Part shown: one piece after another, positions 2,282 through 33,280 of the stretch
How the letters are laid out: every line of letters starts with the position of its first letter
Numbering within the stretch: the first letter of the stretch is position 1
Translations under genes and position numbers: made by a program
From: a virus
Direction: 5' to 3' (one strand)
Virus genome (UHGV): UHGV-0098635
DNA: 39,409 bases
Notes under the pieces: generated by a model
The model's database searches: none
Told to the model about the DNA's origin: nothing
Seen by the model: only the letters and a program-made list of their open reading frames with translations

Positions 2282-3099
2282 ACGTACATATCCTGTTTAC
2301 GTGCCCAGTCAGGGCGTTTAATAATTTCCACTCCGCCCCATTCATCGTTGATGCGGCATTCGTGATAGGTATTCAGATCCCGGCGGAACAGAGCGTGCCC
2401 GGCATCGACATCTGGCGCATCCAGCTCGAACACGCGTACCGGATACCGACCACAATCAATGCTTTCGCTCACGGCAAGAAAGAAAAAACCATGCGGCTGA
2501 CCAGTAACCCTCATTGCGCCTTCGCGGTACATTGCGTCCTGCACGTGGTAGCGGAATTCCTCGATGTGGCGTGCAAAACGGTCCATATCTGCAACCTTTT
2601 TCACGTCGACGATCACGTTGTGCTCGTTCAGCCATTTGTCTGGACGAATTCGGCACAACTCACCCGTCTCTTCATCGTTCCAGTACATTGATGCTTCGCA
2701 GTAACCAGGTGCTTCCAACATCCAGCGTGCCGCCGGATGAGCCATTGCGCTATCACGCATCAGCTCCAGTTTCCGCCACTGCTCGGCATCAAGTACCGTA
2801 ATCCCCATATCCGCCACATCACGAAGAAATGCCTCTTCGTCAGCTTTACCTTGTTTCGTCCGACGATCGAATTTCGGTGAAACAATGAAGCGTTTGTCGA
2901 ACTCTCCAGGCTCCAGAAGCAGACAGTGCAATGCGGTTCCCATATCCAGTGCAGACTTTTTCTCTTCGTCTTCTGGTGCTGCCTGAACCCATTTAAGAAG
3001 CGCCGGATTCTTGGCAACCATGTCCAGTTGCGACTTACTCACGCCGTCACCGGCGTGGTAGTCTTCGTTGCTGATGTCGAAATAAATTCCCGGTTTCAT
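2278..3099 (-). CDS. PD-(D/E)XK exonuclease (RecE C-terminal-like, partner of RecT)
   Basis: 273-aa ORF; the N-terminus MKPGIYFDISNEDYHAGDGVSKSQLD is typical of phage PDDEXK exonucleases; start and stop overlap the flanking genes; RBS GAGGGA upstream. Confidence 0.75.
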   Translation of the reverse strand: MKPGIYFDISNEDYHAGDGVSKSQLDMVAKNPALLKWVQAAPEDEEKKSALDMGTALHCLLLEPGEFDKRFIVSPKFDRRTKQGKADEEAFLRDVADMGITVLDAEQWRKLELMRDSAMAHPAARWMLEAPGYCEASMYWNDEETGELCRIRPDKWLNEHNVIVDVKKVADMDRFARHIEEFRYHVQDAMYREGAMRVTGQPHGFFFLAVSESIDCGRYPVRVFELDAPDVDAGHALFRRDLNTYHECRINDEWGGVEIIKRPDWARKQDMYV

Positions 3100-3395
3100 G
3101 CCGCGTCCCTCTGTCCATCAAGCTGATCCGCCAGATCCCAGCGGGCGATAATTGCCATTGCCTCTCGCCGATAGGCATCCATCAGTTCTTCGAACTCAGG
3201 GCTGTCTTTAGCAGCCTCCAGTACTTCCTGACGAACGCCTTTGCCTGTTACAACGTCGAAAGTTGAGGACAGTTGATGAAGTCGGATGCTCTCAATCAGT
3301 TCGACTTGTCGGTCATATAGCTGTTCTGACAGGCGGTAGTCCTTGTCGAATGCCAGCATGATTTTTTGAAGATTTTTCTGCTGATTAACGTTCAT
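3096..3395 (-). CDS. hypothetical early protein
   Basis: ORF in the leftward early operon; start taken as the ATG at 3395 (MNVNQQ) with GGAGG 7 nt upstream, not the longer track start. Confidence 0.6.
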   Translation of the reverse strand: MNVNQQKNLQKIMLAFDKDYRLSEQLYDRQVELIESIRLHQLSSTFDVVTGKGVRQEVLEAAKDSPEFEELMDAYRREAMAIIARWDLADQLDGQRDAA

Positions 3396-3397
3396 TA

Positions 3398-3550
3398 TCA
3401 GCCCTCCCATATCTCGTTATCGTTGGCCACATCGCGAGCTTCTTTGCTGACGAAAGCCCACTTAATGCCTTCCTGTAAGGTGCGGAACTTCCAGCTCATG
3501 AATCCGCATGCAGTAACGCAGTACCAACCGTTGATGATTTTCCACTGCAT
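3398..3550 (-). CDS. hypothetical 50-aa protein, first gene of the leftward early operon
   Basis: Not in the ORF track (under 60 aa). ATG at 3550 with GAGGT RBS; the TGA stop overlaps the next start (TGATAATG). Translation MQWKIINGWYCVTACGFMSWKFRTLQEGIKWAFVSKEARDVANDNEIWEG. Confidence 0.4.
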   Translation of the reverse strand: MQWKIINGWYCVTACGFMSWKFRTLQEGIKWAFVSKEARDVANDNEIWEG

Positions 3551-3569
3551 AACTTGTTACCTCGGTCTG

Positions 3570-3646
3570 TTACCGTTGAGGTAATGATTATGCGTATTTG
3601 GTTTGGTGTCAATAGATATGAGTTAAAAAAATTACCCTTAAGGTAA
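3570..3646 (-). promoter_or_regulatory. candidate leftward early promoter flanked by two TTACC-N5-GGTAA operator palindromes
   Basis: Minus-strand TTGACA (plus 3607-3612) and CATAAT (plus 3587-3592), though the spacer is only about 14 bp. Palindromes at 3570-3584 (TTACCGTTGAGGTAA) and 3632-3646 (TTACCCTTAAGGTAA). Confidence 0.5.
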
Positions 3647-3652
3647 TTGTGT

Positions 3653-3683
3653 AGACAATAAAAAAGCCGCCAGAAGGCGGCTT
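3653..3683 (-). terminator. rho-independent terminator after the repressor gene
   Basis: Stem AAGCCGCC / GGCGGCTT with a 4-nt loop, followed on the minus strand by a T-run. Confidence 0.6.
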
Positions 3684-3703
3684 ACTTACTGAAAAATATG
3701 ATT

Positions 3704-4288
3704 TTATTGTTTGTTTTTTTCGTTCTGGTTGATGACAAATTCAATGTAACTTTCGATCTTTGCTTTCTCGGTTTCGGGTAACAATGCGTAGCGCGAGCGG
3801 TCATAGTTGATGGTCGCAGGGTCGTGCGGGTGAATCAGTAATTCATAGCCGTGACGCCCGAATGCGGATGCAACATTCTCCAGGGTGGAAATGGAAACGC
3901 TGACCTCATTGTTTAACAGGCGGCTGATTGTCACCTGGGCGACGCCGGATGCGCGGTGAAGTTTTCCCTGTGTTGAAAGGTCGCGGCTTTCGCTCATCCA
4001 GCGTTCCAGGTTGTGAGCCGCCAGCTGACCAATGTCGCTTGGGCCGACAGGCTGAAAACCTTCCTGAGAAAGCGAGCGATCGATATCAAGCCAGTTACGG
4101 GGTTTATTGGCGGCAGCTTCAATTTTTCGCGCAACCTGGTCGCCGATAACCTTCTTGCCAAGAGCCCAGCGGTTTACCAGATTTGCCTGAGTTCCAAGTT
4201 TTTCTGCCATCCGCGTCTGAACACCATTGAATTCACGGTCGATCAAGTCGTTGAGATTTTGCCTGCGGACGTCCTGGATACTTTTCAT
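3704..4288 (-). CDS. phage repressor, CI-like role, two HTH regions, no S24 peptidase domain
   Basis: 194-aa ORF divergent from a Cro-like gene. HTH-like segments at residues about 25-45 and 110-140. No Ser/Lys autoprotease motif (no GDSM-type segment). Confidence 0.7.
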   Translation of the reverse strand: MKSIQDVRRQNLNDLIDREFNGVQTRMAEKLGTQANLVNRWALGKKVIGDQVARKIEAAANKPRNWLDIDRSLSQEGFQPVGPSDIGQLAAHNLERWMSESRDLSTQGKLHRASGVAQVTISRLLNNEVSVSISTLENVASAFGRHGYELLIHPHDPATINYDRSRYALLPETEKAKIESYIEFVINQNEKNKQ

Positions 4289-4343
4289 TTTCTGGAAAAT
4301 CGCCTCGTATATGAATCAGTAGATGATTCAATTTAAAGCAATA

Positions 4344-4406
4344 TTACCCAACAGGTAAATGCACCCCATAGGTAACTATCCTTGATTTTTGTTACCTTAT
4401 GGGTGA
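4344..4406. promoter_or_regulatory. tripartite operator cluster between the repressor and Cro-like genes
   Basis: TTACCCAACAGGTAA (4344-4358), imperfect GCACCCCATAGGTAA (4361-4375), TTACCTTATGGGTGA (4392-4406). A candidate rightward promoter TTGTTA-N17-TATTAT overlaps the third site. Confidence 0.6.
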
Positions 4407-4442
4407 ATATTTATTATCTGAAATAAATATCAGGCAATAGCT

Positions 4443-4673
4443 ATGAGCGATAACGGACATTTCGATTTCAAAAAGCACTGGCTTGCACTTACTCCGGATG
4501 AGCGTGAAGCCTTCGCACAGGAAGCCGGAACGACGAGTCACTATATCCAGACTCACTTAACAGGTAAGCGCAAAATGCCAGGTAAAGTATTGATGAATGG
4601 GCTTTTTAAAGCCTGTAAAACAAGACAATGGCTGCGCTCAAAAGCAGAACTGGCATACTTCTTCTACTCATGA
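4443..4673 (+). CDS. Cro-like small DNA-binding protein (YdaS-like)
   Basis: 76-aa ORF transcribed divergently from the repressor, directly downstream of the operator cluster. Confidence 0.55.
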   Translation: MSDNGHFDFKKHWLALTPDEREAFAQEAGTTSHYIQTHLTGKRKMPGKVLMNGLFKACKTRQWLRSKAELAYFFYS

Positions 4674-6674: not shown

Positions 6675-6751
6675 TTACCTGTTGGGTAATAAAATATTCT
6701 AAACTCTATTGATTTCGTGTCTTATGTGGTTTTTAATTACCTTAGAGGTAA
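6675..6751 (+). promoter_or_regulatory. composite regulatory module upstream of the nin-like operon
   Basis: TTACCTGTTGGGTAA (6675-6689), CTTATGTGGTT (6721-6731), TTACCTTAGAGGTAA (6737-6751) ending 3 nt before the ATG at 6755. Confidence 0.5.
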
Positions 6752-10634: not shown

Positions 10635-10676
10635 CATGGTACTATTACCACAACGGTAACTATTACCACGGTGGTT

Positions 10677-11273
10677 ATGATGCCTGCTGAACCTAAAACC
10701 TATAAACGCAAATCAACGCAATTTAAGCCACTAACAGCAATGCAGGAGGCTTATTGCCAGTCATACATCAAAACGCCTGAAAACCAGACTCAGGCAGCGA
10801 TTAACGCAGGATTCTCCCCAAATACAGCGGCAGTTAAAGCCAGTGTCATGATGCGCGATGAACGCATTCAAAAACGGATTGCCGAGTTGATGGAGGAGCG
10901 CAACAAACGAATGCGCGTCAGTGCTGATTACGTTCTCATGCGCCTGGTGGAGATCGACCAGATGGACGTGATCGATATCCTCAACGACGATGGGAGCCTT
11001 AAACCAATCCGTGAGTGGCCGAAAATCTGGCGCACTACGCTTAGTGGCTTTGATCTGTCATCGACCATCATGAACATGAACGAGGATTCGATAGAGACAA
11101 TCCTCAAAAAAATTAAATGGCCTGACAAGGTGAAGAACCTTGAGCTGATTGGTAAGCATGTTGATGTCAACGCGTTCAAAGAACGTCTGGATGTTAATGT
11201 GAATGTGACAATTGCTGATCGCATAGCAGCAGCCAGGAAGCGACTCAAAGAACGTCAGGATGGTAATCAGTGA
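10677..11273 (+). CDS. terminase small subunit
   Basis: Start ATG at 10677 or 10680; positioned directly upstream of the large subunit with a 4-nt overlap. Confidence 0.65.
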   Translation: MMPAEPKTYKRKSTQFKPLTAMQEAYCQSYIKTPENQTQAAINAGFSPNTAAVKASVMMRDERIQKRIAELMEERNKRMRVSADYVLMRLVEIDQMDVIDILNDDGSLKPIREWPKIWRTTLSGFDLSSTIMNMNEDSIETILKKIKWPDKVKNLELIGKHVDVNAFKERLDVNVNVTIADRIAAARKRLKERQDGNQ

Positions 11274-12745
11274 CAGATACCGTGTTATCTCCTGAAGAGC
11301 AGTTAATCGAGGATATTGCAGGGTTCACTCACGATCCGCTTGGTTATGCCCTCTATGCGTTCCCTTGGGGGGAAGAGGGGACTGAACTGGCACATGCTAC
11401 CGGCCCACGTCAGTGGCAGGCCGATGCGTTCCGAGAGATACGTGATCACCTGCAGAATCCAGAGACGCGCTATCAGCCGCTTATGCTGGCACGCGCTTCT
11501 GGTCACGGTATTGGTAAATCCGCATTCATCTCAATGCTGATCAACTGGGGCATGTCCACTTGCGAGGATTGTAAGGTCGTGGTGACCGCCAACACCGACA
11601 ACCAGCTACGAACGAAGACCTGGCCGGAAATTATCAAGTGGTCGAACCTTGCTATCACGAAAGACTGGTTTACCTGTACCGCTACCGCGATGTACAGCAA
11701 TGATCCTGGGCACGACAAGCGGTGGCGAGCTGACGCAATCCCCTGGTCTGAGCACAACACTGAGGCATTCGCCGGACTACACAACGAGCGCAAACGCATC
11801 ATCGTGGTATTCGATGAAGCGTCGAACATTGCGGATCTGGTGTGGGAAGTTGCTGAGGGTGCGCTTACGGACGAAGACACTGAGATTATCTGGGTGGCGT
11901 TCGGAAACCCTACACGTAACACCGGGCGTTTCCGCGAATGTTTCCGCAAATATAAACACCGCTGGAAAACTGCGCAGATTGACAGCCGGACGGTGGAAGG
12001 CACTAACAAACAGCAGTTGCAGAAATGGGTTGATGACTACGGGGAAGACAGCGACTTCGTTAAAATCCGTGTGCGCGGCATATTCCCTGATGCATCTGAA
12101 TTGCAGTTTATCCCTACCGGTCTTACTGATGAGGCAATGAAACGGGTGGTAACCGCTGCGCAGGTGGCGCATGCTCCGGTGATAATCGGTGTTGACCCGG
12201 CATATTCAGGCGTTGATGACGCGGTGATATACCTGCGGCAGGGGCTACACAGTAAGATGCTGTGGACTGGCAACAAGACCACTGACGATCTGATTATGGC
12301 GAAGCGTATCGCTGACTTTGAAGACCAGTATCAGGCTGACGCGGTGTTCATCGACTTCGGTTACGGAACCGGTTTGAAGTCAATCGGTGATGGCTGGGGG
12401 CGTACTTGGCAACTTGTTCCGTTCGGCGGCGCGTCTACTGACCCGCAGATGCTCAATAAGCGCGGGGAGATGTTCAACTCATGCAAGACATGGCTGAGGC
12501 TGGGCGGCATGCTGGATGACCAGGAAACAGCAGACGACCTGTCGGCGGCAGAGTACAAAGTTCGAGTGGACGGTAAAATCGTTATCGAACCGAAGGAAGA
12601 TATCAAGGAGCGGCTTGGGCGTTCACCGGGTAAAGGCGATGCGCTACTGCTGACGTTTGCGTTCCCTGTGTCGAAGCGTCTGCGAATTCCCGGGCAGCAG
12701 AACCAGCAAGGCAAGGCCATTACAGATTACGATCCCTATGCTTAG
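11270..12745 (+). CDS. terminase large subunit
   Basis: 491-aa ORF with an ATPase-like N-terminus and nuclease-like C-terminus, in the canonical position before the portal. Confidence 0.85.
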   Translation: MTDTVLSPEEQLIEDIAGFTHDPLGYALYAFPWGEEGTELAHATGPRQWQADAFREIRDHLQNPETRYQPLMLARASGHGIGKSAFISMLINWGMSTCEDCKVVVTANTDNQLRTKTWPEIIKWSNLAITKDWFTCTATAMYSNDPGHDKRWRADAIPWSEHNTEAFAGLHNERKRIIVVFDEASNIADLVWEVAEGALTDEDTEIIWVAFGNPTRNTGRFRECFRKYKHRWKTAQIDSRTVEGTNKQQLQKWVDDYGEDSDFVKIRVRGIFPDASELQFIPTGLTDEAMKRVVTAAQVAHAPVIIGVDPAYSGVDDAVIYLRQGLHSKMLWTGNKTTDDLIMAKRIADFEDQYQADAVFIDFGYGTGLKSIGDGWGRTWQLVPFGGASTDPQMLNKRGEMFNSCKTWLRLGGMLDDQETADDLSAAEYKVRVDGKIVIEPKEDIKERLGRSPGKGDALLLTFAFPVSKRLRIPGQQNQQGKAITDYDPYA

Positions 12746-13560
12746 TCTTTATTTTTATCCTCGAAACCTGATAATCCAGATAGAACACCAAAGTTATTAA
12801 AAACGTCTGGCTTACCAGATTTTAATCCGGATAAGTTGTGTTGCTCCAAAAAGTTGCTAATTGTTTGGCCGTTGCCAAGTGCAAGACTTTTTATTTGAGA
12901 TTTTTCAGGGTATTTGAGTTTGTATTCGTCGAAATCATTTTGGAGGGTCTTATATGCCTCATTCATTCTTCCCAGAGTTTCCGATATCTCTTTTAATGAA
13001 TGATTTAGAGCTGCTAACTGAGCACTGGCGGATCTCAATTCGTCATCTTTAGCTTTCAACTCGGCAGTCAATTCCCCCATACTATTCTTTGATCGAATAA
13101 TCTCTTCTTTCATCTCTTGGATGTCTTTTTCCGCGCCAGTCTTAACTTTGTCGTATGTAACATCTTTTTTAGCCAATAACCTCTGCAGTCTGGTTTCACG
13201 CTGGATTTTTCTTGCCTTCAGGTGATTTTCGATTGAGTCATTATTATCAAGAGGCTTTGCTTGCCATACGTTAATGATATTGTTTACCCATGGTAATAGG
13301 CAGCAGATAGCAATTACAGATAAGCATGGATAAAACATAACAGTTTTCCATGTGCTGTTATCTGAGATATATGAAATTTTATCTATTATGTTTGATTTGC
13401 TAAAAAATAGATAAAGAATTGATTTCCAGTTGAAGGCGCACCAGGACATAACAAAAGCACCAAGCACAGGGTTTTTGGCTCGATTCACGGCAGTATTGGC
13501 AGTAGATAAAAACAGCTCTTTGAAGGATTCAAACATGCTAATTACCTTGAAGTTTTTCAT
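12742..13560 (-). CDS. accessory membrane plus coiled-coil protein of unknown function
   Basis: AT-rich and opposite in strand to the flanking late genes. Start taken at 13560 (MKNFKV). Two hydrophobic segments and a long charged helical region. Uses AGA/AGG Arg codons. Confidence 0.6.
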   Translation of the reverse strand: MKNFKVISMFESFKELFLSTANTAVNRAKNPVLGAFVMSWCAFNWKSILYLFFSKSNIIDKISYISDNSTWKTVMFYPCLSVIAICCLLPWVNNIINVWQAKPLDNNDSIENHLKARKIQRETRLQRLLAKKDVTYDKVKTGAEKDIQEMKEEIIRSKNSMGELTAELKAKDDELRSASAQLAALNHSLKEISETLGRMNEAYKTLQNDFDEYKLKYPEKSQIKSLALGNGQTISNFLEQHNLSGLKSGKPDVFNNFGVLSGLSGFEDKNKD

Positions 13561-13564
13561 GATT

Positions 13565-13579
13565 ATACCTTTAAGGTAA
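13565..13579 (-). promoter_or_regulatory. operator-like palindrome abutting the accessory gene start
   Basis: Minus-strand TTACCTTAAAGGTAT followed by AATC and the ATG. Confidence 0.5.
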
Positions 13580-13595
13580 TTTGCGGTCATCAAGC

Positions 13596-13619
13596 AAAAA
13601 AATGCCCGGCGAACCGGGC
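13596..13619 (-). terminator. rho-independent terminator (second of two after the tRNA)
   Basis: Stem GCCCGG / CCGGGC, loop CGAA, followed on the minus strand by a T-run. Confidence 0.5.
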
Positions 13620-13696
13620 GAACTGGAAGCAATGAGTTATGCCTTCCGTGGCTGTACTGGTTTACAGCATGAAGTCATCGCAATGGCGTCCTGCTG

Positions 13697-14181: not shown

Positions 14182-14258
14182 TTACCTGAAAGGTAATAAT
14201 TCGCGCGTTAAATGTCAACTGTCTACGATAAATAAATCATATGTGGTTAAATTGGTAA
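14182..14258 (+). promoter_or_regulatory. composite regulatory module upstream of the portal operon
   Basis: TTACCTGAAAGGTAA (14182-14196), CATATGTGGTT (14237-14247), GGTAAT half-site (14253-14258). Confidence 0.5.
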
Positions 14259-30256: not shown

Positions 30257-30670
30257 ATGAAGGAATTATTGCTGTTATCGGTATTTTTGATATCCGCTTG
30301 CTCGACATCCTATGATGTTTATGACGGTGTTGATAAGGCATATTGCGACAAAGTTAAAATGGATTTTTCTCTTGCCAAGACGGCGAAGGATAGTTGTATT
30401 GATCACTACGTCAAGACTTATACCAAGCCAGCCTCATCGGCATCTGATATTGCTGAAGGTGCTGTGTTTGAGTGTAACAAGGTGATATCCATCGCAGCGA
30501 GTTCTTCATACGATGCTGCTGTATGTGCAATGGCTGAAAGAAACGGCATGTCAGTGCAAAAAATTAATAGCATGATAAGCAGTAATGACGAAGCCAAAAT
30601 AAGAACTGATATCAGCTCGGTGAAAAAAGATGCCATGAACAGAGTTGTAAAATATCAGTCATCTTTATAA
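30257..30670 (+). CDS. lipoprotein, accessory gene
   Basis: 137-aa ORF with a signal peptide and lipobox (LISAC); AT-rich; last gene of the late operon before a terminator. Confidence 0.65.
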   Translation: MKELLLLSVFLISACSTSYDVYDGVDKAYCDKVKMDFSLAKTAKDSCIDHYVKTYTKPASSASDIAEGAVFECNKVISIAASSSYDAAVCAMAERNGMSVQKINSMISSNDEAKIRTDISSVKKDAMNRVVKYQSSL

Positions 30671-30685: not shown

Positions 30686-30710
30686 AGGCCGCTTTCGCGG
30701 CCTTGTTTTT
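30686..30710 (+). terminator. rho-independent terminator ending the late operon
   Basis: Stem AGGCCGC / GCGGCCT, loop TTTC, followed by TGTTTTT. Confidence 0.6.
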
Positions 30711-30870
30711 AACGAATGCCACCGCCACCCGGGCGGGAATCCGCAGAACGCCCACCGCAGCGGGAGCCGTCAGCGGCAGTATCGCTGTCGTGCTGACAAC
30801 GACCGGCAAAGGCCTGAGTTGAAGCTACCAGAGACAACAAAACGAACAGTGCAGCAAATGCTTTTTTCAT
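30709..30870 (-). CDS. small secreted peptide precursor
   Basis: Start taken at 30870 (MKKAF). Signal peptide MKKAFAALFVLLSLVASTQAFA followed by a roughly 31-aa Gly/Arg-rich peptide with two Cys. Confidence 0.4.
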   Translation of the reverse strand: MKKAFAALFVLLSLVASTQAFAGRCQHDSDTAADGSRCGGRSADSRPGGGGIR

Positions 30871-30951
30871 TGTGAAATTTCCATCTATAATCCACCTCAA
30901 TGCGGCGTCAATGAGTGTAGCACTGACTTTTGTTTCGTCCATAAAAAACTA

Positions 30952-31464
30952 CTATGCAGGCTTTTTGGATTTGTACGAATAATCCCACGGATAAACATTT
31001 CTACTAAGCGGAGCTGTATTCGTTCGTTCATGAAATAATTTTGTGAAATTCAATACGGAATCCATCCAAACTTTTGCGTTAGCTTTGGTGTGTGCGGGCG
31101 GGTCCCAATAAGCTAGTAAGGCTGCATCTCTTATTTCATTGACTGCATATATGAGATATGCGTTACTGGTTGGTTTTGGCCTGTAATTTCCTTGTTCATC
31201 AATCAATCCATATGACCACTCATCCCAACACTGTTCAGTACATGAGTATGAATATGATGCATATTCACCAATATTGACATGAACCTTTCTGAGATGGAAA
31301 CCTAATACTTCGTCTGGTCTTTCAAAAAGAGTATCTTTTCCCAGATCAGGATGATGACCATGACGCCAGTGTTGTTTAAAAGCATCTTTTAGCGAAATCA
31401 GAAAGTCATCAGTTTTAAACTCACCAGTAGGTATAACCTTCCCGCTATACTCACTCAAAAACAT
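30952..31464 (-). CDS. candidate toxin (weak YafO-like resemblance) of a two-gene accessory module
   Basis: 170-aa ORF overlapping the upstream gene by 14 nt; the segment GKDTLFERPDEVLGFHLRKVHVNI loosely resembles the YafO core FGRDALYD...KFERVAHIHL (recalled). Confidence 0.5.
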   Translation of the reverse strand: MFLSEYSGKVIPTGEFKTDDFLISLKDAFKQHWRHGHHPDLGKDTLFERPDEVLGFHLRKVHVNIGEYASYSYSCTEQCWDEWSYGLIDEQGNYRPKPTSNAYLIYAVNEIRDAALLAYWDPPAHTKANAKVWMDSVLNFTKLFHERTNTAPLSRNVYPWDYSYKSKKPA

Positions 31465-31777
31465 CGAATTCCTCTTCCTTCATATGCGTTTCTAATGAGT
31501 TAAGCTGGCGGAAAGATATCTCTTTTGATTCTGCAGATGAGAGCTTTTTTATCCGCTTTATATTCTTTGTGATAGGAATAGTCATTGTATGCACATCAGC
31601 GGATGCTCTTGGCTTTGTGCTGATAAAAATATGGCGCAATGCCGCATTTTCACTATTGAACGAGCCAATAGCTGATTTACGTGCTACAACCTTACCAGTA
31701 AAAATACGACTCTTGCTACGCTTTGCATGAGTTCCGCTTCTTACCGGACCTCTCATCACGAATCCAAGTTTTGTCAT
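31451..31777 (-). CDS. basic small protein, candidate antitoxin/partner
   Basis: 108-aa basic ORF, first gene of the operon, with GGAG RBS and an operator palindrome about 45 nt upstream. Confidence 0.5.
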   Translation of the reverse strand: MTKLGFVMRGPVRSGTHAKRSKSRIFTGKVVARKSAIGSFNSENAALRHIFISTKPRASADVHTMTIPITKNIKRIKKLSSAESKEISFRQLNSLETHMKEEEFDVFE

Positions 31778-31819
31778 CTTTAATCTCCGGTAAGTTACAG
31801 GTATAAAATAAAAACAGGT

Positions 31820-31834
31820 TTACCTTTAAGGTAA
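31820..31834 (-). promoter_or_regulatory. operator-like palindrome upstream of the accessory operon
   Basis: TTACCTTTAAGGTAA. Confidence 0.5.
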
Positions 31835-31906
31835 TAGTACGCTATTCACCCCCAGTCTGCAATCTGTACAGAATTATTTAAAGGCACATCCCTGTGCCGC
31901 CGCCCG

Positions 31907-32563
31907 TCAGAAGAACCCTGCCTTGTCGTTGATGTACTCCGCGTGGGTCTGGATATCACGCAGGCATTTGCTCACACCGACGATGTAGCAGAACATGGTG
32001 GTCAGCTCCGCCGCCGCGCCCGATACGTCGTGCCCGTCTTCCTGTAACTGGTTCAGCAGATTCATCAGCAGTGAGTTCTCCGTCAGGCCGAGAACACCAG
32101 ACGGAGAATGAATCAGGCTGCGGTAGCCGGGCTTCAGTGGGGCGCTGTATTCTTTTTTGTCTTCCAGCTTGATCGCCTCCATAATGGCGGGCATGAAGCC
32201 TGACAAGACCTTCTCCACTTTTGTTTCTTGTTGTCTTAAACGTTTCTCGCATTCAATGAAGTAGCGTCGCACCTGGCGACCTTTTTCGTTACGCTCGACC
32301 ATCGCCAGCTCTTTGGCTGTATCAAGGGTGAGGTGGTACTCTTTGCGGTTGTGGCCGCCTCTACCAGATGTTTGCTTTCCCAAATTGGAAAGCAAAATAT
32401 AGTCTTGATTTTCAATGAATTCGTATTCTGATATGCGATTTGTAATCCATGCTGCAAACACCTTTTTAACACCTAAAAAAGCGTGCAGATCGCGGGCATT
32501 ACAAAGTAGGGCTGTTTCGTTAGATATAGTGCCGTTGAATACGGGGATGAGTTGAGCGTTCAT
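31907..32563 (-). CDS. phage antirepressor, AntA-type N-terminal domain
   Basis: The N-terminus [32 protein letters not shown] matches the AntA/Ant antirepressor pattern; the C-terminal roughly 80 aa are paralogous to the ORF at 32881-33138. Confidence 0.75.
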
Positions 32564-32723
32564 GATGGCGTCTCCACTTAGCGAATTACATCACCACCGC
32601 TGAGACCAATCAGATGGTGGTGAACTGAACGGAGTTGGTCTTACCGGCCTAAGTGGTACCGGCGTCCTTTCGGACCCCCATTCAGCCCACCATAATTCTG
32701 GCATGACTGTGCTATACGCATAA

Positions 32724-32801
32724 AAAAACCACGTCTGGCGTGGTATGCGCCACTTAGTAATCCGGGAGACCAATCCCGGCACTGGATTTTGCCAGTGCCC
32801 G
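32724..32801 (-). ncRNA. structured non-coding segment with terminator; candidate small RNA or attenuator
   Basis: Minus-strand series of stem-loops: GGCACTGG/CCAGTGCC (plus 32780-32801), CCGGGA/TCCCGG, then CCACG-CCAGA-CGTGG followed by T7. The track ORF here (32591-32914) is judged spurious. Confidence 0.3.
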
Positions 32802-32834
32802 ATTACTATGGCACAAGAGGAGTGCGATGTAAAT

Positions 32835-32849
32835 TTACCGCAAAGGTAA
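32835..32849 (-). promoter_or_regulatory. operator-like palindrome
   Basis: TTACCGCAAAGGTAA. Confidence 0.5.
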
Positions 32850-32880: not shown

Positions 32881-33138
32881 TTATCTGGTTTGTTTTCGTA
32901 ATTGTTCGGCACAATAGTCGAGATGTGTTTGCAGATCCCGCATAGACATCTGTGAGCTGGTGACGTAGTTAATCAGTGCAGTCAGTTCGGCAAGTGGGCC
33001 ATCGACATTAAATCCATCCTTATCGAGATCCCGGAGTAATTTCATCAAGTGCGATCCCTCCACTAGTGATCTGACGCCTCCCGGCGTGTGAATCCTTTCG
33101 GTAAATCCGTCTTCCAGTGGATAGTGATACTGCTGCAT
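32881..33138 (-). CDS. small antirepressor-like protein, paralog of the AntA C-terminal domain
   Basis: Start taken as the ATG at 33138 (MQQYHY) with GGAGAA RBS. IHTPGGVRSLVEGSHLMKLLRDLDKDGFNVDG...MRDLQTHLDY aligns with the AntA C-terminus [32 protein letters not shown]...[10 protein letters not shown]. Confidence 0.6.
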   Translation of the reverse strand: MQQYHYPLEDGFTERIHTPGGVRSLVEGSHLMKLLRDLDKDGFNVDGPLAELTALINYVTSSQMSMRDLQTHLDYCAEQLRKQTR

Positions 33139-33159
33139 CTTATCTTCTCCATGCAATAA

Positions 33160-33175
33160 CTGTATATTTATACAG
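33160..33175. promoter_or_regulatory. LexA (SOS) box
   Basis: CTGTATATTTATACAG; with flanks AACTGTATATTTATACAGTA it matches the 20-bp LexA consensus TACTGTATATATATACAGTA at 18 of 20 positions; about 22 nt upstream of the start at 33138. Confidence 0.75.
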
Positions 33176-33214: not shown

Positions 33215-33280
33215 TTACCCGAAAGGTAATATCTATTCGTATTTACAGTCTTTCTATCCATATGTGGTTTTTCGGGTAAT
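33215..33280 (+). promoter_or_regulatory. composite regulatory module in the antirepressor/tailspike divergent region
   Basis: TTACCCGAAAGGTAA (33215-33229), CATATGTGGTT (33259-33269), GGTAAT (33275-33280). Confidence 0.5.

Follow-up and report, generated by a model that had tools for sequence, protein, structure and literature searches.

Gene content of the locus

We analysed a stretch of 39,409 nt of viral DNA (UHGV virus genome UHGV-0098635; hereafter the window), concentrating on three short leftward genes flanked by the end of the rightward late operon and by the gene for an antirepressor with an AntA domain (ant). The first of them codes for a 108-amino-acid (aa) protein and overlaps by 14 nt with the second, which codes for a protein of 170 aa; both are followed by a small open reading frame (ORF) of about 53 aa. 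All three genes and the two landmarks were located at the places given in an initial annotation of this DNA, which had described the genes as a single operon under an operator palindrome. According to the analysis presented here, the 108-aa and 170-aa genes probably constitute a mobile two-gene cassette of type II toxin-antitoxin-like character, residing in a swappable prophage slot directly downstream of ant, while the third gene and the palindrome belong to the phage backbone. Coordinates of all features are listed in Table 1.

A 2.4-kb query from this region matches Uetakevirus, i.e. epsilon15/phiV10-like podophages of Escherichia coli, with phiv142-3 and TL-2011b as the best matches. Judged from these matches, the window is an E. 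coli phage or prophage of this group. Because the middle part of the region varies, phage records in GenBank each cover at most 44% of the query.

Table 1. Features of the cassette region and dispersed copies of the palindrome in the window
Feature	Position	Strand	Basis and remarks
Late-operon end		+	824-aa ORF, then 137-aa lipoprotein-like ORF, then bidirectional terminator; ORF list, terminator scan
Bidirectional rho-independent terminator	30686..30703	both	Terminator scan; ends the late operon (+) and the ant-cargo-peptide unit (-)
53-aa precursor of a predicted small secreted two-cysteine peptide, phrog_14503	30709..30870	-	ORF list, PHROGs
Degraded terminator remnant, GCCTGCATAGTAG-TTTTTT	30943..30961	-	DNA alignments; 3' arm lost
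170-aa long-form YafO-family protein, phrog_1651, putative ribosome-dependent mRNA endonuclease toxin	31464..30952	-	GAGGAA just upstream of ATG; ORF list, profiles
108-aa basic protein, phrog_5933, putative antitoxin	31777..31451	-	GGAG 7 nt before ATG; ORF list, PHROGs
Palindrome TTACCTTTAAGGTAA, TTACC-N5-GGTAA	31820..31834	.	Abuts the -10-like TACTAT
Candidate sigma-70 promoter of the cargo slot	31834..31862	-	TTGCAG (31857-31862), 17-nt spacer, TACTAT (31834-31839); read from sequence
Hairpin, GGCACAGGGATGTGCC then TTTAAATAATT	31883..31898	-	Just 3' of the ant stop codon; perfect 6-bp inverted repeat
Antirepressor (ant), AntA domain	32563..31907	-	Pfam
Double helix-turn-helix (HTH) repressor gene, 194 aa	3704..4288	-	
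Palindrome copies	3570-3584, 3632-3646, 4344-4358, 4392-4406		Pairs flank the double-HTH repressor gene; OL/OR-like layout
Palindrome copies	10645-10659, 10663-10677		Start of the terminase gene, i.e. of the late operon
Palindrome copy	32835-32849		Directly next to the ant -10 (TTGAAA-17-TATATT)
Palindrome copy	33215-33229		Precedes the tail-fibre gene
Palindrome copies	6675-6689, 6737-6751, 13565-13579, 14182-14196		Other intergenic regions

Relationship of the 170-aa protein to the YafO family

A weak resemblance of the 170-aa protein to YafO, noted already in the initial annotation, was borne out by profile comparisons. The protein matches the Pfam family YafO_toxin (PF13957) with 19.7 bits (E = 9.5e-4) along profile positions 7-100 of 101. 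This family is also matched individually by 25 of 40 full-length relatives (E <= 0.01), in the best case with E = 6.8e-23, and a homologue 76% identical to the 170-aa protein has a precomputed PF13957 match. When a profile made of the 40 sequences was compared with E. coli K-12 YafO in hhalign, the two were aligned along 110 columns with 95.9% probability and E = 6e-9. This broader profile alone gave a signal, and none was obtained (0.4%) when a narrow toxin profile was compared with the single YafO sequence. Alignment of long forms, short forms, and E. coli YafO revealed that F29, G42, H62, Y106, and H125 are invariant throughout, and that G36, D44, P50, and S100 are nearly so; a catalytic role of the conserved residues of the family is not established in PMC7781912 and PMC7180214. 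On these sequence comparisons, the 170-aa protein is a divergent long-form member of the YafO family.

Close homologues, sharing 66-82% identity, are found in Enterobacter, Salmonella, Serratia, and Raoultella under the NCBI name "YafO family toxin". The clade of long forms is small, since a search of 1.84 billion cluster representatives with a hidden Markov model (HMM) disclosed only 54 relatives. Searches in NCBIfam and PADLOC gave no match for the 170-aa protein, and the PHROGs family to which it is assigned is of unknown function. The toxin call is not new and proved to be present in public records: of 5,426 complete E. coli genomes, 69 contain the identical gene under the RefSeq/PGAP label "type II toxin-antitoxin system YafO family toxin", with the partner gene labelled "hypothetical protein".

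E. coli YafO, an endoribonuclease without a solved structure, associates with the ribosome and cleaves mRNAs 11-13 nt past the start codon; within the family, ribosome-dependent cleavage of mRNA and growth arrest are known for this protein only (PMC7781912, PMC7180214). By homology, the 170-aa protein would most likely be a ribosome-associated mRNA endonuclease that blocks translation.

The 108-aa partner and organization of the pair

The 108-aa protein is basic, as had been claimed, with an overall isoelectric point (pI) of 10.6. Its charge is distributed unevenly, the first 78 residues having a pI of about 12 and the last 30 a pI of 4.5. Members of the family share an invariant N-terminus (MTKLGF, extended as MTKLGF..G) and a conserved acidic C-terminal stretch of 30 residues, separated by a highly variable basic middle part. 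AlphaFold2 prediction based on six sequences is confident only for the C-terminal helix comprised of residues 81-107, in which the predicted local distance difference test (pLDDT) is about 87-89. The protein has few homologues; no match was found in Pfam, NCBIfam, PADLOC, or PDB, and phrog_5933 is a family of unknown function. The earlier view that this partner is not of the RelB/DinJ type agrees with the comparisons, in which no similarity to RelB, YafN, or Phd could be detected. E. coli YafN itself matches the Pfam family PhdYeFM, unlike the 108-aa partner.

The association of the two genes is regular. In every context examined, close homologues of the toxin are preceded immediately by a homologue of the partner, 104-123 aa long, and with the same overlap of 14 nt. 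Among these contexts are a lambdoid prophage, with the pair behind a Q-type antiterminator gene, and podophage-like prophages of Enterobacter, Serratia, and E. coli, with the pair behind Bro-N or pRha genes. Distant toxins carry partners of quite different sequence, which we sorted across 46 IMG/VR loci into groups B, C, and D, next to group A which represents the window type, and the 59-aa type of TL-2011b. Toxins are 65-99% identical within a partner group and 38-49% between groups, except for the related groups C and D (58-61%). Partner type thus follows the toxin clade and, together with co-inheritance of the two genes, this is the pattern expected of a cognate antitoxin. Furthermore, the pair shows the generic anatomy of type II modules, being composed of two small, co-directional, and overlapping genes inherited together across genomic contexts. 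Based on this anatomy and on co-evolution rather than on homology, the 108-aa protein is likely a cognate antitoxin of an unannotated family. In the initial annotation the locus was proposed as a possible toxin-antitoxin or abortive-infection module of a new arrangement; the type II character of the pair is retained from this proposal, but not its three-gene arrangement.

Two candidate similarities among C-terminal tails were considered and dropped. The first was a YafN-like tail in the partner (EEEFDVFE vs. DDDFNDFKE), where hhalign aligned the last 28 residues only (E = 0.065) and an HMM of partner tails scored YafN at -0.5 bits. The second was one homologous C-terminal motif common to all partner groups. 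In a leave-one-group-out HMM comparison only groups C and D detected each other; group A, to which the window belongs, reached 6.2 bits (E = 2.6), and no match to group B was among those listed.

Compared with the type II system YafN-YafO of E. coli K-12, in which YafO is a ribosome-dependent mRNA interferase (PF13957), the pair in the window has a toxin homologous at the profile level, with the core motifs FG(K/R)D, (V/I)H(V/I), TS(N/D)..L(V/I)Y, and AH. Common to both is also a small partner gene positioned immediately upstream, with reading frames that overlap or abut. The differences are in toxin length, 170 aa in the window and 132 aa in YafO; the window clade has about 15-25 residues inserted behind the HVH strand and is about 25 residues longer at the C-terminus. 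They extend to the partner, which lacks a Phd/YefM domain and any significant similarity to YafN, and to the genomic setting, which is the SOS-regulated dinB operon for YafN-YafO and a phage-borne cassette behind a phage operator in the window.

Boundaries of the cargo slot

The segment that runs from the ant stop codon through the adjacent hairpin and the TTGCAG-17-TACTAT promoter to the palindrome is identical in phiv142-3 and TL-2011b, despite the different cargo of these phages. Homology with the sister phages breaks immediately after GGTAAA, i.e. directly past the palindrome, which is the left boundary of exchangeable cargo. At the opposite end, the 53-aa gene, about 75 nt upstream of it, and the bidirectional terminator make up a block that hardly differs between phiv142-3, TL-2011b, EC.W1-9, and an E. 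coli prophage. DNA alignment shows that this terminator is kept in all sister phages.

Between these limits, the cargo differs from phage to phage. Upstream of the peptide gene, phiv142-3 carries two tiny ORFs, TL-2011b a 59-aa/181-aa YafO-like pair, EC.W1-9 a pair made of a 108-aa protein and a DUF2335 membrane protein, and phiV10 almost nothing. The TL-2011b pair gp45-gp44, with the second protein named 'YafO family toxin', shares with the window the slot, the backbone promoter, the palindrome, and the peptide gene. The gp44-type toxin is 33% identical to that of the window (E = 2e-27), whereas its partner is unrelated in sequence and half as long, and an intact terminator follows the toxin gene.

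Exchange of unrelated cargo between fixed boundaries in near-identical backbones is also a feature of the moron, or cargo, hot spots of temperate phages. In the slot described here, the left boundary is the operator, and the right one is the terminator or a T-tract. Classical morons differ in having their own promoter and terminator and in being expressed in the lysogen, while the slot uses a promoter and operator of the backbone and looks repressor-controlled.

Three further observations concern the mobility of cargo. In EC.W1-9 (L012), the DUF2335 pair occupies the slot (1033-1834, -), and a second, YafO-like pair of 139 aa and 168 aa, with a toxin 47% identical, is located beyond ant on the opposite strand (3092-4007, +). 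Because both are present in one phage, its sequence indicates that two cargo positions can hold such cassettes. In the Enterobacter-type lambdoid prophage loci L003-L005, a pair of group A has moved together with the slot promoter and the palindrome to a place downstream of the Q-type antiterminator gene (3560-4513). No further copy of the palindrome was found inside that 8.5-kb locus, and the block looks like a recent transfer with a now-orphan operator. Finally, the 137-aa ORF at the very end of the late operon (30257-30670, +; phrog_8691), which has a lipoprotein-type signal (LISAC), lies at what appears to be a second variable spot beside the slot, because phiV10, phiv142-3, and TL-2011b each have different small genes at this place.

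The hairpin at the ant end of the region is conserved in phiv142-3, TL-2011b, and EC.W1-9 and belongs to the backbone. It is absent from the output of the terminator scan; its sequence makes it a possible weak terminator.

The peptide gene and the degraded terminator

The ORF ending at 30709 (-) can be read as 77 aa from the ATG at 30942 or as 53 aa from the ATG at 30870. The shorter form is annotated in both GenBank and RefSeq, it alone puts the signal peptide at the N-terminus, and the upstream ATG of the longer form is GTG in sister phages. As had been proposed for this precursor, the 53-aa form has a signal peptide with n, h, and c regions and an AXA site, starting with MKKAFAALFVLLSLVASTQAFA and continuing with G after the site (MKK, hydrophobic core, AFA/G; read from sequence). 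The predicted mature peptide has 31 residues, is glycine-rich, and contains two cysteines; in databases the gene product is named "transmembrane anchored protein".

This gene and the pair also occur apart from each other. The pair occurs without the peptide gene in at least 13 loci (among them L003-L010, L014, L029, and L033), and the peptide gene is found with unrelated cargo in phiv142-3 and in EC.W1-9, where it accompanies the DUF2335 pair, and it is present in TL-2011b as well. In relatives, the last codons and the stop codon of the toxin gene lie within an intrinsic terminator (GCCCGC-ATA-GCGGGC-T5) that separates the toxin gene from the peptide gene. The 53-aa gene is accordingly a separate backbone gene and not part of the cassette, and the view of three genes as one functional unit could not be upheld.

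In the window itself, the 3' arm of this terminator is lost, and the RNA fold of the remnant is no better than that of shuffled sequences (z = -0.16), which makes read-through into the peptide gene plausible here. Its co-transcription with the pair may be a derived accident of terminator decay. A possible promoter of the peptide gene itself consists of TTGACG (30906-30911), a spacer of 16 nt, and TATAGA (30884-30889); this arrangement is present in the E. coli-type sequence and is not conserved in the Klebsiella-type sequence. A hairpin in the 5' region of the gene (GCCAC-N6-GTGGC, 30891-30907, -) is kept in sequences of both types, at equivalent positions of loci L013, L030, L042, and L057, while the promoter-like hexamers around it vary.

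The slot promoter and the phage-wide palindrome

The palindrome TTACC-N5-GGTAA lies in front of the genes, as had been described in the initial annotation, but its distribution argues against an operator of the module's own. The window contains ten perfect copies and three copies with one mismatch, where 0.68 would be expected, and none of 100 shuffled sequences reached 13. The motif is present in 56 of the 60 loci examined. Upstream alignment of pairs of group A disclosed conservation of ATTACC-N5-GGTAA(T) with diverging flanks, and the same half-sites also precede cassettes with unrelated partners; TTG and TAnnAT of the slot promoter align in other contexts too. Since the promoter and the palindrome are shared with phages that carry other cargo, and homology ends after GGTAAA, both are part of the slot rather than of the cassette. 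A reading in which the antitoxin uses the palindrome as an operator of its own was set aside on the grounds of half-sites before unrelated partners, the 13 copies, and the break of homology past the palindrome.

Placement of the copies (Table 1) suggests another role. Sites 32835 (ant promoter), 10645 (late operon start), and 3570 (leftward early promoter) directly adjoin -10 elements. Taken together, the thirteen sites look like a dispersed repressor regulon, and site placement suggests that the palindrome is most likely the operator of the double-HTH master repressor of the phage. In the related phage vB_EcoP_ZX5, experiments identified the homologous repressor as the key determinant of lysogeny; its operators are unmapped there (PMC9782041). 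In a literature search, we found no paper that maps operators in phiV10/epsilon15-like phages or describes a regulon of this motif.

Proposed function and alternative explanations

Combining these observations, we consider it probable that the 108-aa and 170-aa genes are a mobile type II toxin-antitoxin-like cassette inserted behind ant. The 170-aa toxin, by homology with YafO, would arrest translation by ribosome-associated cleavage of mRNA. The translationally coupled 108-aa antitoxin would neutralise it, probably through its conserved acidic C-terminal helix, and the basic N-terminal two-thirds of the antitoxin look disordered or may bind nucleic acid. Transcription of the cassette is suggested to start at the backbone promoter, in which the -10 element is adjoined by a copy of the palindrome. 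If the palindrome is an operator of the master repressor, then this repressor, and not the antitoxin, would set expression of the cassette. Binding of the repressor to the palindrome would mean that the cassette is expressed mainly on derepression. It would be largely off in a stable lysogen and turned on, with ant and the lytic promoters, once the repressor is inactivated.

A speculative extension, which as a whole we hold to be rather unlikely, is that transcriptional control has been handed to the master repressor of the prophage, leaving an antitoxin without a DNA-binding domain. The YafO-like RNase and its neutraliser would be made only upon inactivation of the repressor, either in induction or when the antirepressor of a superinfecting phage titrates the repressor. 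The outcome would be a translation shut-off triggered by derepression, i.e. abortive infection that guards the repressor or a take-over in the lytic phase. The palindrome would double as a recombination joint for swapping of at least four non-homologous types of antitoxin/toxin cassettes.

Several points weigh against a toxin-antitoxin-like pair under repressor control. On the side of the toxin, the 170-aa protein fails the gathering cut-off of PF13957 (19.7 vs. 25 bits), PDB sequence searches with the toxin profile gave nothing meaningful and there is no solved structure of a relative, and the AlphaFold2 model of the family (ten sequences, pLDDT 39) is too poor to test the fold. The protein is also mildly acidic (pI 6.4), which seems unusual for an RNase toxin. 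On the side of the partner, the protein is basic, Pfam and PDB searches and AlphaFold revealed no recognisable antitoxin or DNA-binding domain, its overall pLDDT is 60, and the comparisons of its tail with YafN and with other partner groups, described above, were negative. As regards control, the slot promoter has 7 of 12 consensus matches, which is weak and below the threshold of the consensus scan, and the binder of the palindrome is deduced solely from site positions. Silencing in the lysogen is also hard to reconcile with addiction or defence, the roles that prophage toxin-antitoxin modules usually have.

An alternative is that the two proteins are functionally no toxin-antitoxin pair. The YafO-like protein would then be an effector of the lytic phase, such as an RNase for shut-off of host translation, or a catalytically retired fold, and the 108-aa protein a nucleic-acid-binding helper or regulator. 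Such a role would suit a promoter that carries the operator of the phage lytic promoters, from which expression is expected on derepression and not in the lysogen, and a partner that is basic and looks largely disordered. It would also agree with the outcome of the PADLOC-DB search, in which no defence model matched at E <= 1, either for the three proteins or for the lipoprotein-like ORF next to them. However, the two genes are strictly co-inherited and translationally coupled, and partner type co-varies with toxin clade, which is the signature of a neutralising partner; residues invariant across the YafO family are also retained. We judge this alternative distinctly improbable.

Were the module of type II in the classical, autoregulated sense, the 108-aa antitoxin, by itself or together with the toxin, would bind the palindrome through its basic N-terminal region and repress its own promoter, and other copies would be bound by another protein or shared by chance. 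The palindrome is indeed found at the promoter of every pair of group A, including the copy moved into the lambdoid prophage, and the invariant basic N-terminus (MTKLGF...KRRK) could contact DNA. Set against this, the same half-sites stand in front of cassettes whose partners have unrelated N-termini and in front of non-toxin cargo, twelve more copies are found at unrelated promoters, some of them on either side of the repressor gene, and neither searches nor structure prediction gave a DNA-binding fold for the partner, all of which renders autoregulation very doubtful. It is hardly credible that all three genes form a toxin-antitoxin or abortive-infection module of new arrangement, with the peptide as a functional third component and the palindrome as the module's own operator: the genes are co-directional, no intact terminator separates the toxin and peptide genes in the window, and about 30 IMG/VR loci have the peptide gene at a distance of 82-95 nt downstream of a toxin homologue, divergent toxins included, but such a module is largely refuted by the distribution of the peptide gene and the pair, by the terminator between them in relatives, and by the palindrome being a 13-copy backbone motif.

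Returning to the two-gene cassette, what is new is not the toxin call but its pairing with an unannotated, non-Phd antitoxin candidate in a slot that looks repressor-controlled. Should the pair be active, the poorly understood YafO family, with only one characterised member and no solved structure, would gain a long-form branch specific to a phage lineage, and an antitoxin type of no known fold would be added as well. A literature search revealed no paper that characterises a YafO-like pair of a phage. A cassette on an operator-bearing promoter of the backbone would, if this is true, be regulated by the lysis-lysogeny switch and not by itself. Such control bears on the question of whether prophage toxin-antitoxin modules act in the lysogen, in addiction and exclusion, or in lytic growth. 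For annotation, a three-gene operon under its own operator resolves to a two-gene cassette and elements of the backbone.

Putative immunity elements around the antirepressor gene

Upstream of ant, Rfam models disclosed an Hfq-binding small RNA isrK (32722-32798, 67.7 bits) and a C4 antisense RNA (32613-32697, 61.2 bits) in the segment 32613-32811 (-), together with c4 a1/b1 target sites just below threshold (32759-32811). By these sequence matches, the podophage controls its antirepressor through antisense RNA in a P1/P7 immI-like manner. In phages P1 and P7, the C1 repressor has many dispersed operators, and the c4 antisense RNA of immI controls ant. The window shares with them a single operator motif scattered over many promoters, and the C4 antisense RNA, a1/b1 targets, and isrK upstream of ant. 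It differs in the symmetric palindrome TTACC-N5-GGTAA as operator and in the double-HTH candidate repressor. To our knowledge, P1 has no toxin-antitoxin cassette downstream of ant.

In addition, two matches to the LexA box (CTGT-N8-ACAG) were found, at 33160-33175 and 13652-13667. The first, CTGTATATTTATACAG, is placed just upstream of a small ORF (32881..33156, -), which codes for a protein similar to the C-terminal part of Ant and could thereby provide an SOS-inducible small antirepressor that triggers induction. The second box is about 20 nt upstream of a 296-aa ORF (12742..13632, -).

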